Source of the DNA: Eledone cirrhosa
Lineage: Eukaryota
Reading direction: 5' to 3'
Assembly (NCBI GenBank): GCA_964016885.1
Contig: OZ024740.1
Location: 107,198,001 to 107,262,000 of the forward strand
DNA: 64,000 nucleotides
This document shows positions 2,250-61,535 of this stretch, piece after piece. Every line of letters starts with the position of its first letter. Positions within the stretch are counted from its first letter, which is position 1. Below the pieces are notes generated by a model that was not told where the DNA came from, searched no databases, and saw only the letters and a list, made by a program, of their open reading frames with translations. Both the position numbers and the translations under genes were made by a program.

Positions 2250-2706
2250 AATATAATATGTTGAGAAGGTAACACACCAGAGAGAGATATATAGTGCGTT
2301 ATCAATAATACAGGGAAAAAAACCACCAGTGTATGGAATCTATAACCTATGAAAGGCAGACTATAGACACGATAATTAAAAATATAAATTAAAGTGTAAA
2401 TAAATACCTTTATAACTATATAACACACGTACAAATCCTGTGACTTCTCTCTCCCACGTGTAGCTGGACAGTCAATTGTAAAATTCTCTTAGTGTTGTCT
2501 GAAATGTATGGCCTTACACACGCTGATGAACCGAGACTAGACCATTTCTTTCAACAAATTTTTTGGTGAAACATATTTTTAATTATCGTGTCTATAGTCT
2601 GCCTTTCATAGGTTATAGATTCCATACACTGGTGGTTTTTTCCCTGTATTATTGATAACGCACTATATATCTCTCTCTGGTGTGTTACCTTCTCAACATA
2701 TTATAT
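2250..2706. mobile_element. PLE-derived non-autonomous module with about 135-bp inverted termini and a degenerate HHR
   Basis: About 2250-2385 is the reverse complement of about 2572-2706. The plus strand reads ACACG-CTGATGA-ACCGAGA...TTTTGGT-GAAA...CGTGT (2518-2591), but the cleavage triplet is non-canonical. The right end abuts (TA)n. Confidence 0.6.
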
Positions 2707-3266
2707 TTTATATAATATATATATATATAATATATATATATATATAAATATATATATAATATATATATATATATATATAATATATAATATATATATTTAT
2801 ATTATATATATATATATATATAATTTATATATATAATATATATATATATATAATATATATATAATATATATATATAATATATATATATAATATATATATA
2901 TAATATATATATATATATAATATATTATATATAATATATATATATATATAATATATATATAATATATATATATAATATATATATATGTATAATATATATA
3001 TATATATATATATATATATATAATATATATATATATGTATAATATATATGTATATATATATAATATATATATATATATATAATATATATATATATAATAT
3101 ATATTATATATATATATATATATATATATATATATATATATATATATATATATATAATATATATATATTATATATATATATATATATATATATATATATA
3201 TATATATATATATATATATATAATATATATATATATATAGTATATATATATATATATAATATATAA
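2707..3266. repeat. (TA)n microsatellite; similar tracts at about 3560-3685, 4355-4434, 5121-5368, 13990-14092, 14320-14630, 14975-15060, 15435-15605, 16440-16575, 47715-47772, 50655-50735, 54793-54852, 58297-58350, 58685-58765, 58975-59012 and 62180-63210
   Basis: Read directly from the sequence. These tracts produce the spurious YIYI ORFs. Confidence 0.95.
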
Positions 3267-3335
3267 TGTAGGAGGTGAGTTTTATTGTAGCACAATAAAG
3301 CAATGCAAATATCGGATAAGTTTATTGGAATGGAG

Positions 3336-3566
3336 TATATATAAGAAGAAATTAAAAGATGGTTAAAAAAGTTCCATGTATTTTATTATGCGCATTTCAA
3401 AAACAAATATCATCCAGGGACGATATTTGCGTTCTCATCAGATAAAATAGGGAGACATGATATGAAGCTTAAAAATCGCAAATATCGTCCCTGGATGATA
3501 TTTATTTTTGAAATGCGCATAATAAAATACATGGAACTTTTTAAACCATCTTTTAACTTCTTATAT
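3336..3566. repeat. Inverted repeat with about 95-bp arms carrying an HHR (PLE pseudo-LTR-like)
   Basis: TATATAAGAAG...GATATTTGCG (about 3336-3431) mirrors CGCAAATATC...CTTCTTATATA (about 3477-3566) around a spacer of about 45 bp. Confidence 0.85.
3379..3449 (-). ncRNA. Type I hammerhead ribozyme
   Basis: Minus strand: TATTTTAT-CTGATGA-[GAAC GCAAATATC...GATATTTGT TTTT]-GAAA-TGCGCA-TA-ATAAAATA. It has an 8-bp stem I, a paired stem II, a palindromic stem III (ATGCGCAT) and an AUA cleavage triplet. Confidence 0.8.
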
Positions 3567-3974
3567 ATATATAATACATATATATAATATATATATATAT
3601 AATATATATATATATATATATATATAATATATATATATATATATATAATATATATATATTATTATTTAATATATATATATAATATATCATAACTTATGTC
3701 CATAGAATCATTTGATAAAATATGTACACTATTTCCTCTCCCAATTAGCATAATTAACCACATAAAAAATAAATTAGACCGGGCCTTAAGAATAAAGGCT
3801 CCTATGAAGAAATATTTGATAAATAAACTACAGCAGACTCTTCGCGGCCGACCGCAACAGAATATTTACCCAACATTTCAACTGCATGTAGAAACTGATC
3901 AAATATACCGTCAACCATACACAATTAGGTATAAATTTAAAGTTAGAAGATATGAGTACACTCTTACCGTGATT

Positions 3975-4056
3975 ATGTCCCTACTCTCGGTTTCGTTCGC
4001 GTTTTGAGATATCCTATTAAGGATAAATCTCGAGTATCGAACTCATCAGGAGACAT
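3975..4056 (-). ncRNA. Type I hammerhead ribozyme with extended stem II
   Basis: Minus strand: ATGTCTC-CTGATGA-GTTCG...GAGAT..ATCC..GGAT ATCTC...CGAAC-GAAA-C CGAGA G-TA-GGGACAT. It has a GUA triplet and a 7-bp stem I with one G-U pair. Confidence 0.8.
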
Positions 4057-4248
4057 CTCATAGGACAGTTAATTTTCCAAAGCGATCCCCGCCAGAAATA
4101 GATTCAAAAATGGCTAAGAATCGTGACGTGGCAGTGGTCAAGTTAGAAAGAATGTGATTAGTTGCTTACGGCGAGTGGGATGGTTGCTAGAAAGCGCAGC
4201 CCAATATTGCCCAAATTGCATCTCAACCTACTGGGAGATTATTAAATA

Positions 4249-58240: not shown

Positions 58241-59063
58241 TCCTATACGTGTTTGTATATATATATGTGTGTGTGTGTGTGTGTCTATGTGTGTGTGTAT
58301 ATATATATATATATATATATATATATATATATATATATATATATATATATATACAGTATATATATATATGGTTTTGTGTGTGTATACATATTTTTCCCGT
58401 TTTATTATATACATATTCGCACATACCTTTCACTACATAAACTTACATTCTTGCACATACATACAAACATCCCACTAAGCAACCTTACATATGCATATAT
58501 CATACATTTCACAACGCACATATTCGAAATTTTAACGTCTTTTCATTTCATTTAACTTAAATCAGCTCTCCAAACAGGCCAGTCTATCAGATCGATCTTT
58601 TAAATATTCTTTTGTTATCTTAATGATTTAATTTTCTTTCTAATGCATTGTCTGGTTTTCAAAATTATTTAAATTTGTGTTACGTATATATATATATATA
58701 TATATATATATATATATATATATATATATATATATATATATATATATATATATATATATATACATATATTTTTATTTGTTTGACCCGAATTACTTGGTCG
58801 TTTCTTTGGTTGTGCGGATGTTTGTTTAACCATCGTCTCAGTGTGTTTGGCCTTTAACGTATGTTGTAGCTCTGGTTCATCTGAATCATCGAGCGCTTGC
58901 CACACATCTAGGAATTTGTTTTTCGTTAATTCCTAAGCCGAAATACGATTCTCGCTAATTTATATTTGTATACATATATATATATATATATATATATATA
59001 TATATATATATAAAAAATAAAGTTAAATAAAAGTCAAATGATTAAAATTTAGCTTCGTTTATT

Positions 59064-59118
59064 ACTGCTATATATATTTCAGTGACAGCCATCTTTGGCT
59101 GTGACCTCTTCAGGCAGT
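59064..59118 (-). ncRNA. Type I hammerhead ribozyme (inverted, 5' of the PLE ORF)
   Basis: Minus strand: ACTGC-CTGAAGA-GGTCACAGCCA AAGA TGGCTGTCACT-GAAA-TATATA-TA-GCAGT, followed by AATAAA. Confidence 0.85.
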
Positions 59119-59276
59119 TTGAATTAGTATGGTATAGACAAGTACATATGTTGTTTAGGTGTATGATATTGTCAATACTCTGATATGCCCAGTTCCTTGT
59201 TGGGTTGTTAATTCACTGGGGAATATGACTCCAGTTCCCCAGTGAATTAACAACCCAACAGGCCTGGAACAATGAC

Positions 59277-61178
59277 GTGCCGGCGTTGTATGGGCTTCGA
59301 AAAGACCATAAAACGGGCTGGGACCCTGTCGCGGGACCACCAACACGGCCAGTCTGTGGGGCTAACATTGCTAGTAACTACAGACTGTCCTACTTCCTCT
59401 CCCTGATCATACGCCCCATCATTGAGATGTCCCCAGATGTGTGTGACAGCACGGAGGACCTCCTCAGCAGAATCGACGCGGGTAACCGATCTGGGGACCT
59501 AACAAACTGCATAATAGGCAGTATGGATGTTGTGTCCCTGTATCCATCTATTGACGTGGATTTTGCTGTGGAGAAATGCGTAGAAATGATCAGCGAGAGC
59601 AAGGTTGAGTTCCGTGGGATTGATACCAGTGAGCTGGGACTTCTACTTAAGCTTACCCATAGTAATAGTTACCTAGACACTTATGACCTTAGCAACCTGT
59701 GCCCTACAAGACCAGCAAGAGGCAGACCACCTACCATTACCTCAATGGCCAAGAAAACCCACACAGATAGATGGAACGGGTGGACCAGAGCCATACGGAC
59801 ACCCGAAAACGACGATGAACTGAAGAAAATGATTGCACATGCGGTAGGGGCCAGCATAAAATTAACCCTTAAGGAACATATGTTCAAATTTAATGGTAAA
59901 ACATATGCCCAAGAGGAAGGAGCAGCCATTGGTGTTAGCATTGCAGGCGACATAGCTAACTTATTCATGGTATGGTGGGACAGTAGACTTAAACAAAAAC
60001 TTAAAGAACAATTAGAAGACAGCTTAACCCTGATAATGTACTCCCGCTACGTAGATGATATAAACATCGTAGTTAAGACACCCCCACTAAAGAACAGTCA
60101 GGAACTAGAGAAAAACACAATGGAAAGCATCCAGCAAATAGCAAACTCCATCCACCAGAGCATTAGAGTTACTATAGACTACCCAAGTAGACACCCCAAC
60201 CATCGATTACCTGTACTAGACACAGAGCTCTGGTTAGATACCATTAACAACCAAAAACAAATCCTCCATTCCCATTATGCCAAACCCATGACTTCCAAAC
60301 ATCTGATCCACCGAAACTCGGCCATTTCGGACCATACCAAAATCAACATACTGATTGCGGATTTGGTACGGGTGATGAGAAATGTGTCCCGCATGTGCAA
60401 CCCCGAAGAACTAGAGAGACACATACAACACTTCATCCACCGTATGCAGTTCTCTGGCTACAATCAGAGAGATAGAATCAGAGTGTATAGAGGAGCCAGA
60501 ACCAAATGAGAAAAAATGGTAAATAATGACATAAATGGGACCTGCCCCTTGTATAGGAGCAAATTTTGGAATAGAATAGAAAGAACTAGGAACAAGGCCA
60601 ATAGAATAAACTCATGGTATGATAGCAATAAATACCAGAGTGTAATGTTCATCAATACAACCCCTAGAGGCGAACTAGCCTACAAATTTAGAAGGGCCCT
60701 AAATAAACATAAACTCAATATTAAGATAGTAGAAAGACCAGGTACCTCCGTAAAAACACTTATTAGCAAGACATACCCGTTCCAAAGACCCTCATGTATA
60801 GATAAGAAATGTATAACCTGTAAAATAAGCCCCCATATTAACTGTAAAACTAGAAATGTAGTGTATAGCATAAGATGTACAGAAGGACAATGTAGAAACA
60901 AAAATATAGTGTACATAGGTGAGACAGCTCGTAGTATAGGGGAACGAATAAATGAACACTGGCGAGACCTCCAAGATAATAAAGAATCATCTGTGCTCTA
61001 CCAACATGCTAAGATAGAACACAGGGGTAGATTAGAGAACATAGAAATACAAATAGAATCCACACACAGAAAAGACGCAATGTTTAGGCAAATTACAGAG
61101 GCAGTAAGCATAAAAGAATTAAAACCAAAATTAAATAGAAAATATGAGTGGAACAGCAACATCACAACTTACAATTAA
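59277..61178 (+). pseudogene. PLE reverse transcriptase plus GIY-YIG endonuclease, one reading frame with a single TGA at 60507-60509
   Basis: LYGLRKDHK, RPVC, SMDVVSLYPSI, QEEGAAIG, YSRYVDD, LPVLD, HYAKP and NVVYSIRC...C...VYIGETARSIGERINEH...H...H...E...LN. ORFs 59277 and 60516 are in the same frame (offset 1239 nt). Confidence 0.9.
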
Positions 61179-61490
61179 GGACAAAATGAAAACACACACA
61201 GGACAAAATGAAAACACACACACACATAGAACAAACAACTTACAATTAAGGACAAAATGAAAACACACAAGGACAAAATGAAAACACACACACACATAGA
61301 ACAAACAACCAACCAACAATAAATAAATTAAATTAAATTAAATAAATAAACAAATAGATAAATGAACACAAACACACACAGACACCCGGATGTGGCGCAT
61401 GCGCAAACTGAGCACACAACACACACACAGAAACAAAATGGCGTAGGATAGAAGAAAGGAAAGGCACAGAAACAAAGGAAAGGAATCCCC

Positions 61491-61535
61491 AGTCACTGAA
61501 GAGGTCACAGAGTGTGTGACGAAAGGACTATGACT
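61491..61535 (+). ncRNA. Minimal type I hammerhead ribozyme in the PLE 3' pseudo-LTR
   Basis: AGTCA-CTGAAGA-G GTCACA GAGTG TGTGAC-GAAA-GGAC-TA-TGACT, with a CUA triplet and a very short stem III. Confidence 0.8.

Follow-up and report, generated by a model that had tools for sequence, protein, structure and literature searches.

Penelope-like elements (PLEs) are described, in the account of their structure given in PMC8557442, with a tail and an inverted 5' copy, and in the same account Craig et al. ascribe insertion into (TA)n to the linker of the endonuclease. The minimal hammerhead ribozymes of PLEs are predicted, in the passages devoted to them in PMC4209133, to act as dimers with low activity. 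PLEs have also been named a strong helper candidate for the retrozymes of animals (discussed in PMC7229834), for which a preprint (10.64898/2026.07.22.740005) argues, where it treats the subject, from co-occurrence and sequence kinship, calling the mechanism unknown. Here we describe thirteen hammerhead sites in a 64-kb window of the 3.0-Gb genome of Eledone cirrhosa (contig C1:107198001-107262000), which is the whole stretch that was analysed and which has 39% G+C and is rich in (TA)n. Eleven of these sites are 5'-truncated 3' ends of protein-coding PLEs, i.e. known biology. The remaining two belong to families L and B, which lack an open reading frame (ORF) and which are probably retrozymes without long terminal repeats (non-LTR retrozymes) that the reverse transcriptase (RT) and endonuclease of Hydra-type PLEs copy into TA repeats.

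Hammerheads were identified with a structural descriptor that comprises a type I core, a stem I of at least 5 pairs and stems II and III of at least 2 pairs each, and that tolerates one extra base after the core. Repeats were collected by a masked self-BLAST of the window, since TA tracts swamped a plain repeat search. Each module was searched against the genome; in the DNA searches the best 40 candidates were scored and 7-30 loci were taken per family, a sample biased towards close copies. Pattern searches provided whole-genome counts as well as the first 30 matches on contig 1, the latter being treated as unselected. Positions within families (+/-) are counted from the C of the CTGA core of the ribozyme. 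Criteria for clade assignment were taken from section 11 of PMC8557442.

The descriptor identifies exactly six complete type I hammerheads, at 3449-3379 (-), 4056-3975 (-), 13881-13946 (+), 16682-16617 (-), 59118-59064 (-) and 61491-61535 (+). These are the six that an earlier note, made from the letters of this stretch, had folded by hand; shuffled windows hold a mean of 0.02 and a maximum of 1, and 0/200 reach six. The proximity to (TA)n that it had claimed for its modules was confirmed for all six, which lie 77-330 bases from a tract (25% of the remaining positions are no farther than 350 bases from one). Folding energies of four are better than those of most shuffles (z -1.8 to -3.0), those of the other two are not (z -1.1 and -0.8), and Rfam returned no hammerhead among its 85 matches in the window at E<=5, only microsatellite noise. 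The bare motif CTGA.GA(4-40)GAAA is a weak indicator, at about twice chance, with 13 matches in the window versus 6.0 ± 2.3 in shuffles, 1/60 of which reach 13; its matches at 22550, 27107, 36314 and 39714 are without stems. The excess over shuffled sequence on which the earlier note depended is clear for the structure and slight for the motif. Decayed ORFs of non-LTR retrotransposons, at 21009-24223, 26131-28331 and 31801-36444, hold chance matches to the motif.

The seven further sites that the earlier note had listed as decayed or partial are all copies of families with a hammerhead core. Individually broken are the copies at 2523, where a 53-base deletion spans the cleavage site, at 14756 (GAAA altered), at 50329 (core changes) and at 51821 (an arm ending inside the ribozyme). 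For 14190, 16178 and 54963 stem I was not found by hand reading, nor was it found in their families. Altogether six Hydra-type PLE families (A, C, F, G, H and J) and four Neptune-type families (K, E, D and I, of which D and I by one locus each) account for eleven sites. The families are not unrelated, as had been supposed: several are kin, and the hammerheads at 3449, 13881 and 16682 have a common stem I and a homologous tail. What had been proposed as retrozyme-like non-autonomous elements is sustained for two of the thirteen sites, L and B, and gives way for the others to the ordinary alternative that the note itself had named, truncated ends of autonomous PLEs.

In the window the family L insertion (2163..2710, +) consists of an inverted arm (2163-2438) and a forward part (2438-2710) of a permuted unit of 541 bases; its ribozyme core is at 2523-2571, with the cleavage site lost, and the arm holds the start motif of site 1 at 2242 (-). 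The family B insertion (3684..4365, -) has a main part (4306-3684) and a short inverted arm (4298-4365) of a permuted unit of 661-664 bases. It contains an intact type I hammerhead (3975..4056, -), whose stem I covaries between subfamilies, and at 4185..4239 (-) the start motif of site 2 (~4239-4220) and a 20-base box (4204-4185). Exact pattern matches amount to 1,032 for L and 483 for B, which are lower bounds on the numbers of L and B segments; both families have at least several hundred dispersed copies, and those of L are young, 98-99% alike. Upstream of the unit start, copies of both families continue into their own 3' end. Among the unselected insertions (21 L and 28 B) there is TA at the 3' end in 18 L and 26 B, the 3' end falls at one of two fixed sites in 18 L and 27 B, an inverted arm is present in 14 L and 6 B, and more than one unit in 11 L and 9 B. 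None of these 49 insertions continues into a PLE ORF, two same-strand matches lying ~500 bases beyond the block. The loci L307 and L318 hold 4.4 units each, still ending at a fixed site in TA. Head-to-tail units with at least two complete ribozymes were found in L307, L318, L309, L313 and others; most insertions hold one ribozyme.

That all modules are debris of autonomous PLEs, L and B being long pseudo-LTRs of unsampled parents, is correct for eleven of the thirteen sites, and parents can be rare: the ORF of the Hydra-type family G was reached in 0/30 loci until loci selected for their upstream sequence were taken (5/20). For L and B themselves we consider this explanation very improbable and largely refuted, since what lies upstream of the unit start is their own 3' end rather than new sequence, and since 20/49 unselected insertions exceed one unit while 0/49 reach an ORF. 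The one odd locus, L308, was considered as autonomous parent of L and rejected, being a host duplication without PLE ORF. Even less credible is that L and B spread as DNA, be it as satellites, as fold-backs resembling miniature inverted-repeat transposable elements (MITEs) or as passengers of TA slippage. Some copies do resemble inverted-repeat modules, and an element with true terminal inverted repeats resides in the same TA cluster (4435-5120). The arms are unequal, though, 5' ends lie anywhere and 3' polarity is fixed; copies are dispersed over many contigs with the outline of coding PLEs, and neither fixed symmetrical ends nor copies of constant length were seen.

Based on their anatomy, L and B likely form an element class separate from PLE debris and are best read as non-LTR retrozymes. 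Their ribozymes are type I and their ends are permuted and truncated, not LTRs, which distinguishes them from plant-type LTR retrozymes, marked by a type III hammerhead in LTRs, a PBS and a PPT. The unit lengths of 541 and 661-664 bases are above the range of 150-450 stated in PMC7229834 and inside the 51-972 stated in the preprint (10.64898/2026.07.22.740005). Two further ORF-less modules with inverted repeats, at 3266-3562 and 15059-16438, a kind of module that the earlier note had included, turned out to be truncated PLE ends. The fixed boundaries expected of such modules are found at 3' ends, the 5' ends being variable.

The ribozyme is conserved in both families: the core is intact in 61/65 L and 47/62 B copies, and a minor allele of at least 10% occurs at 0/22 core positions versus 37/196 other positions (P=0.03). 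Among 32 B ribozymes (the window copy and a selection of the 31 most divergent distinct ones out of 63), 92.7% of cells are paired and 27 cells have changed on both sides, against 8.9 in shuffles. One stem I pair is C-G in 14 copies and U-A in 13. Since these sequences are kin, the covariation amounts to roughly one or two events for each pair.

L and B align over the 20-base box only. It has 1,780 exact matches, and all 30 that were sampled fall in ORF-less permuted families: 11 in L, 18 in B and one in a third family, which was found through the box and has the same anatomy (L435:1400-1950; contig C1 ~54,902,300-54,902,900). This third family has a unit of ~580-640 bases and 1,130 first-look candidates, and carries both start motifs, the box, a hammerhead with a stem I of 9 pairs and a stem III of 5 pairs, and a variable 17-base repeat in loop II. 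Stems III and I of L and the third family are longer than those of minimal hammerheads, which would favour cleavage as monomers. The box may be a piece of a promoter or a protein-binding site.

The ORF-less and the coding families have the same insertion outline, which agrees with the tail and inverted 5' copy described for PLEs (PMC8557442) and with the two internal start sites demonstrated in vitro for PAc, the Poseidon element of green anole (PMC11167929). Two fixed 3' end sites were found in A, C, G, J, K, H, F, L and B, and one was seen in E, D and I; paired sites are 60-104 bases apart, 5' ends are variable, and inverted arms begin at the same two sites. Beyond 13 such start sites the sequence of the element itself goes on with 2-8 bases that match (TA)n, with a sum of 50 versus 20 expected; the position of each site is ambiguous over the length of the TA match, of which the null allows for one base only. 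In Hydra-type and ORF-less families a motif follows, NCTC within 24 bases of the start site, answered 7-63 bases later by TYGAG and the complement of N (NCTC...TYGAGN'). The N-N' pair is A-T in A1, C1, G1, H1 and J1, T-A in B2, and G-C in J2, L1, L2, B1 and both sites of the third family, where digits denote the start sites of each family. In the ORF-less families the motif is present in 29/32 (L1), 32/32 (L2), 6/7 (B1) and 20/22 (B2) copies, in the Hydra-type families in 10/13 (A1), 8/8 (C1), 18/21 (G1), 11/13 (H1), 9/11 (J1) and 1/1 (J2), and in the background in 501/53,473 (0.9%). At the two sites of K, the only Neptune-type family scored, it was found in 0/26 and 0/2 copies. The hairpin at the motif is inferred from covariation only.

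These start sites bear on the identity of the helper. L and B could be non-autonomous PLE derivatives moved by a Neptune-type protein (K or E) or by any PLE protein, the motif being inherited baggage. K is young, with an intact ORF of 897 residues at locus L193, as L is young too; it targets TA as well, its two ends having 4-base TA matches, and fusions of J with K demonstrate that clades mix at one site. We nevertheless hold a helper of this kind to be improbable, because both start sites carry the motif in L, B and the third family, whose alignment is otherwise limited to 20 bases, and because K lacks it and has a tail of 60 bases versus 89-104 in the Hydra-type families, L and B. Of the two PLEs that the earlier note had put forward as helpers, the one at 47773, of the Hydra type, fits, and the one at 59259 (its 59013) is without the shared start motif.

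The RNA template can be examined through variants within insertions. Subfamily sites are discordant between direct repeats of one insertion in 2/19 and 4/55 cases (6.6 and 20.3 expected) and between inverted arms in 2/37 and 4/28 (12.8 and 10.4 expected). In L307 nine non-majority letters are common to all passes, other sites being ordered A-B-B-A, and the haplotype order of L318 is partly alternating; a multimeric circle, an array transcript or a later local duplication would each give such patterns. A comparison of private variants made for a monomer circle yielded 8 shared versus 54 unshared in L and 18 versus 77 in B. Three B ends at +98 were discarded as alignment breaks in a diverged subfamily.

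A possibility that we take seriously, short of thinking it probable, is that linear transcripts reading through tandem copies serve as templates for L and B, that no circles are formed, and that the ribozyme trims RNA or parasitises the element. It has the same helper as the explanation we prefer and differs in the template step only. The mixed haplotype order within the 4.4-unit insertions speaks for it, as does the fact that L 5' ends lean towards the ribozyme (by hand tally 9/28 are no more than 27 bases from the cleavage site, against 4.2 expected; P=0.02), and PAc uses uncleaved RNA in the experiments reported in the relevant passages of PMC11167929. On the other hand, 5' truncation at each round would be expected to shrink multimers without regrowth, the longest arrays have 4.4 units and a normal single-insertion outline, and core and stems are conserved. 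The 5' ends show no exact accumulation at the cleavage site, 1/28 L ends lying within 2 bases of it, and no long array occurs among the first 100 listed matches each of L and B (932 and 383 further matches are unlisted).

The explanation we prefer is as follows. The copies of every family stop at one or two fixed sites inside the element, whose sequence goes on there with TA-like bases and, in Hydra-type and ORF-less families, with the start motif. We infer that a Hydra-type protein binds this motif and nicks both strands of a TA tract; each nicked end would pair with the TA-like bases and prime reverse transcription, producing the forward part and the inverted arm, both 5'-truncated. Insertions of L and B extend across the unit junction and span as many as four ribozymes, most insertions being of one subfamily type, and the template may be a multimeric RNA or a circle made by the ribozyme. 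The ribozyme would be under selection in source copies, most likely because it releases single units from transcripts, which would then be ligated to form circles; L and B would supply signals and ribozyme only and the Hydra-type protein the enzyme. A more specific version is doubtful as a whole: a retrozyme clade, of at least three families with the 20-base box, would consist of ribozyme-made RNA circles with two Hydra-PLE start signals (a TA-like template plus a short hairpin), on both of which the Hydra protein primes through base pairs with nicked (TA)n, in the fashion of telomerase, copying the circle several times round.

Fusions between families suggest, from their junctions, that separate RNAs can serve for priming the two arms of one insertion. 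A B arm stands head to head with the ORF of Hydra-type J at L422, with no TA between, another is fused weakly to H at L302, and J-K fusions were found twice, at L138 and at 59223-59260 of the window, with no TA between. Such cross-family head-to-head junctions are few compared with 141 same-family junctions. A row of C-G junctions was set aside as an artefact of a shared short interspersed element.

Several observations weigh against the proposal of retrozymes served by a Hydra-type helper. An autonomous parent of L or B was not found among the fetched loci. The clade names Hydra and Neptune were assigned by motifs and not by a tree. The start motif is short; its scored Hydra carriers A, C, G, H and J are kin and not independent, it was found in 0/2 copies at F1 of the Hydra type, and the evidence among Neptune-type families is that of K. 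Minimum-energy folds pair the motif in L and partly in B, not in the tails of A, G or J. The L422 fusion cannot prove the helper, because J, of the Hydra type, also fuses to Neptune-type K. The haplotype orders of L307 and L318 would not be expected from a single monomer circle, and PAc, the one reconstituted PLE, primes without target homology and without ribozyme cleavage according to the parts of PMC11167929 that deal with priming.

The coding families behind the other eleven sites were assigned as follows. Family A, at 3266..3562 (-), is a Hydra-type PLE truncated to its 3' end, which includes the tail, an inverted arm (3477-3562) and a minimal hammerhead (3449-3379); it has 791 candidates, and 3/30 loci extend into a GIY-YIG ORF ~1 kb upstream, to which L182 adds the RT thumb. 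Families C (13835..13988, +, hammerhead 13881-13946, core 13889) and G (16575..17308, -, hammerhead 16682-16617, core 16674) are likewise truncated Hydra-type 3' ends, with 1,485 and 1,781 candidates; the endonuclease of C lies at -1450 to -1713 in L185. Family F is a low-copy Hydra-type end at 15059..16438 (+), with an inverted arm (15059-15213) and a core at 16178 for which stem I was not found; it has 7 candidates plus 2 chance finds, with the endonuclease in L148 and L323. Family H is the 47773 element itself, a 5'-truncated and frameshifted Hydra-type PLE at 47773..50651 (+) between TA tracts, with a decayed hammerhead at ~50321-50434, a start motif at 50492 and 4,063 candidates. Family J is present as an arm at 59016..59260 (-), the 3' end of a different Hydra-type PLE (hammerhead 59118-59064), which joins K head to head via a short hairpin. 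A DNA search for J gave no match, not even the window copy; a pattern search then gave 6,395 exact 25-base matches genome-wide, making it very abundant, and RT and endonuclease are present in L189 and L190.

The RWK and DKT motifs of the Hydra clade are present in J (L190), the fetched copies of other families stopping short or being frameshifted. The CxCX5C linker was found in A, J and H, CxxC in A, C, H and J, and CxH in A, C, F, G and H, CxxC and CxH standing around a conserved E and N; C, F and G were otherwise assigned by tblastn to the endonuclease of A. In all Hydra-type families the endonuclease is C-terminal, insertion is in (TA)n and a hammerhead lies near the 3' end (in F a core only). 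A first label of Neptune for A, C, G and J was replaced by Hydra.

Among the Neptune-type families K is a young, 5'-truncated RT plus GIY-YIG element at 59259..61757 (+), with a nonsense codon at 60507, a hammerhead at 61491-61535 and a 60-base tail to 61757; 28/40 scored copies are letter-identical over 201 bases. Its Pfam matches to RVT_1 and GIY-YIG fall below the curated cut-offs. Its Neptune-type linker is CX4CX2C, and the CX2-5CxxC pattern before a C-terminal GIY-YIG is present in both K (L193) and E (L239). K is not Naiad-like, its endonuclease being C-terminal rather than N-terminal and the in-frame UGA not being conserved; selenocysteine at 60507 was rejected, as in both L193 and L194 the place of the window's TGA is taken by a tryptophan codon. 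The ribozyme at 59064, which had been attributed to the PLE beside it, belongs to J and not to the 59259-61757 element, so 59064 and 61491 are not two pseudo-LTRs of one element; the former is a J arm fused to K. At L194 and L135 the second 3' site of K continues into the 5' start of the element, a coding element permuted like the retrozymes. Family E is found at 14637..14845 (-), with a minimal hammerhead in the family and GAAA altered in this copy, and again at 51712..52470 (+), where an inverted arm (51712-51821) ending inside the ribozyme is followed by an internal ORF fragment. Family D (14097..14277, -) has an altered core and no stem I found, and family I (54853..55079, -) is an old end with copies 79-87% alike, a core at 54963 and no stem I found. 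Both were assigned by tblastn to E, with a link to an E-like endonuclease in 1/20 loci each at the cut-off used (L375 for D, which has a weak second match, and L342 for I).

Another TA-inserted end, at 58763-58960, has a start motif at 58869 and no ribozyme in the fragment. Further short repeat ends within TA tracts, at 13722-13834, 50737-50824, 61776-61933 and 62584-62668, are likely more PLE ends; the first three recur in 40, 11 and 10 of 191 fetched loci. The element at 4435-5120 has 205-base perfect terminal inverted repeats within TA, and its 276-base middle encodes a peptide ending in HTQLIENTW, which we take to resemble Merlin/IS1595 transposases. Near-identical MITE-like inverted-repeat elements at 25643-26216 and 41176-41846 have arms of 165-186 bases and an identical 155-base middle. 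A small LTR-like element at 52782-54792 has two ~450-base direct repeats (TGT start, ACA end) with ~1 kb between them; the first is followed by a sequence resembling a primer site, and a purine tract precedes the second. A PIF1 helicase fragment at 231-1379 (-; Pfam PF05970, E 1e-60) is probably a piece of a Helitron, and 29281-30783 is a 48-base minisatellite of ~30 copies with a higher-order period of 395 bases.

Compared with described PLEs, families A, C, F, G, H and J resemble the Hydra clade as characterized in section 11 of PMC8557442: C-terminal GIY-YIG, RWK, DKT, CxCX5C, CxxC, CxH, hammerheads and (TA)n insertion. That clade is described there as few families, whereas at least six are found in one 64-kb window, one with 6,395 matches, and tails are 89-104 bases here versus the 30-40 given for PLEs. 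The passages of PMC8557442 on this clade describe no non-autonomous Hydra partner and no tail motif; its supplements, with Hydra sequences and ribozyme lists, could already include some of these families. None of the papers listed in our literature searches describes, in its title or abstract opening, retrozymes that have the double ends of PLEs, a partner of the Hydra type or the present motif. The short palindromic stem III of A, C, G, J, E and H, as well as the extra base before stem II of K, agree with the minimal hammerheads of PLE pseudo-LTRs presented in PMC4209133. Chlamys elements such as MRC1, in the part of PMC8557442 devoted to them, are like L and B passengers of PLEs that have no ORF, form partial tandems in head-to-tail order and are biased towards microsatellites; most of them are without canonical hammerheads and parent-like at the 3' end, in contrast to L and B, which possess ribozymes and for which the fetched loci held no parent. 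In PAc, as its insertions are presented in PMC11167929, both strands are likewise nicked and extended, and two internal start sites flank the tail with a ribozyme just upstream. PAc starts without homology to the cut DNA, in contrast to the 2-8-base match to the TA target per start site here, which offers an RNA-side account of (TA)n targeting.

The closest systems are the non-LTR retrozymes of animals, which in the relevant sections of PMC7229834 and the preprint (10.64898/2026.07.22.740005) are, like L and B, ORF-less units with a type I hammerhead arranged head to tail, with co-existing PLEs as proposed helpers. For those retrozymes circles and cleavage have been demonstrated; for L and B both are predicted. 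If true, the reading of circles with start signals would name helper, cis signal and targeting rule for retrozymes in one system. The insertions of L and B themselves have the outline of PLE insertions and direct attention to a single clade and a single short motif, which would let an assay of the PAc type test helper, signal and circular template. The described animal retrozymes were obtained from tandem-repeat screens and form tandem repeats of 150-450 bases (51-972 in the preprint), up to 62-mers. L and B differ in that most of their insertions amount to roughly a single permuted unit and are scattered over (TA)n tracts, and in having the double 3' ends of PLEs, inverted arms and a clade-linked start motif; tandem-repeat screens would miss most of their copies.

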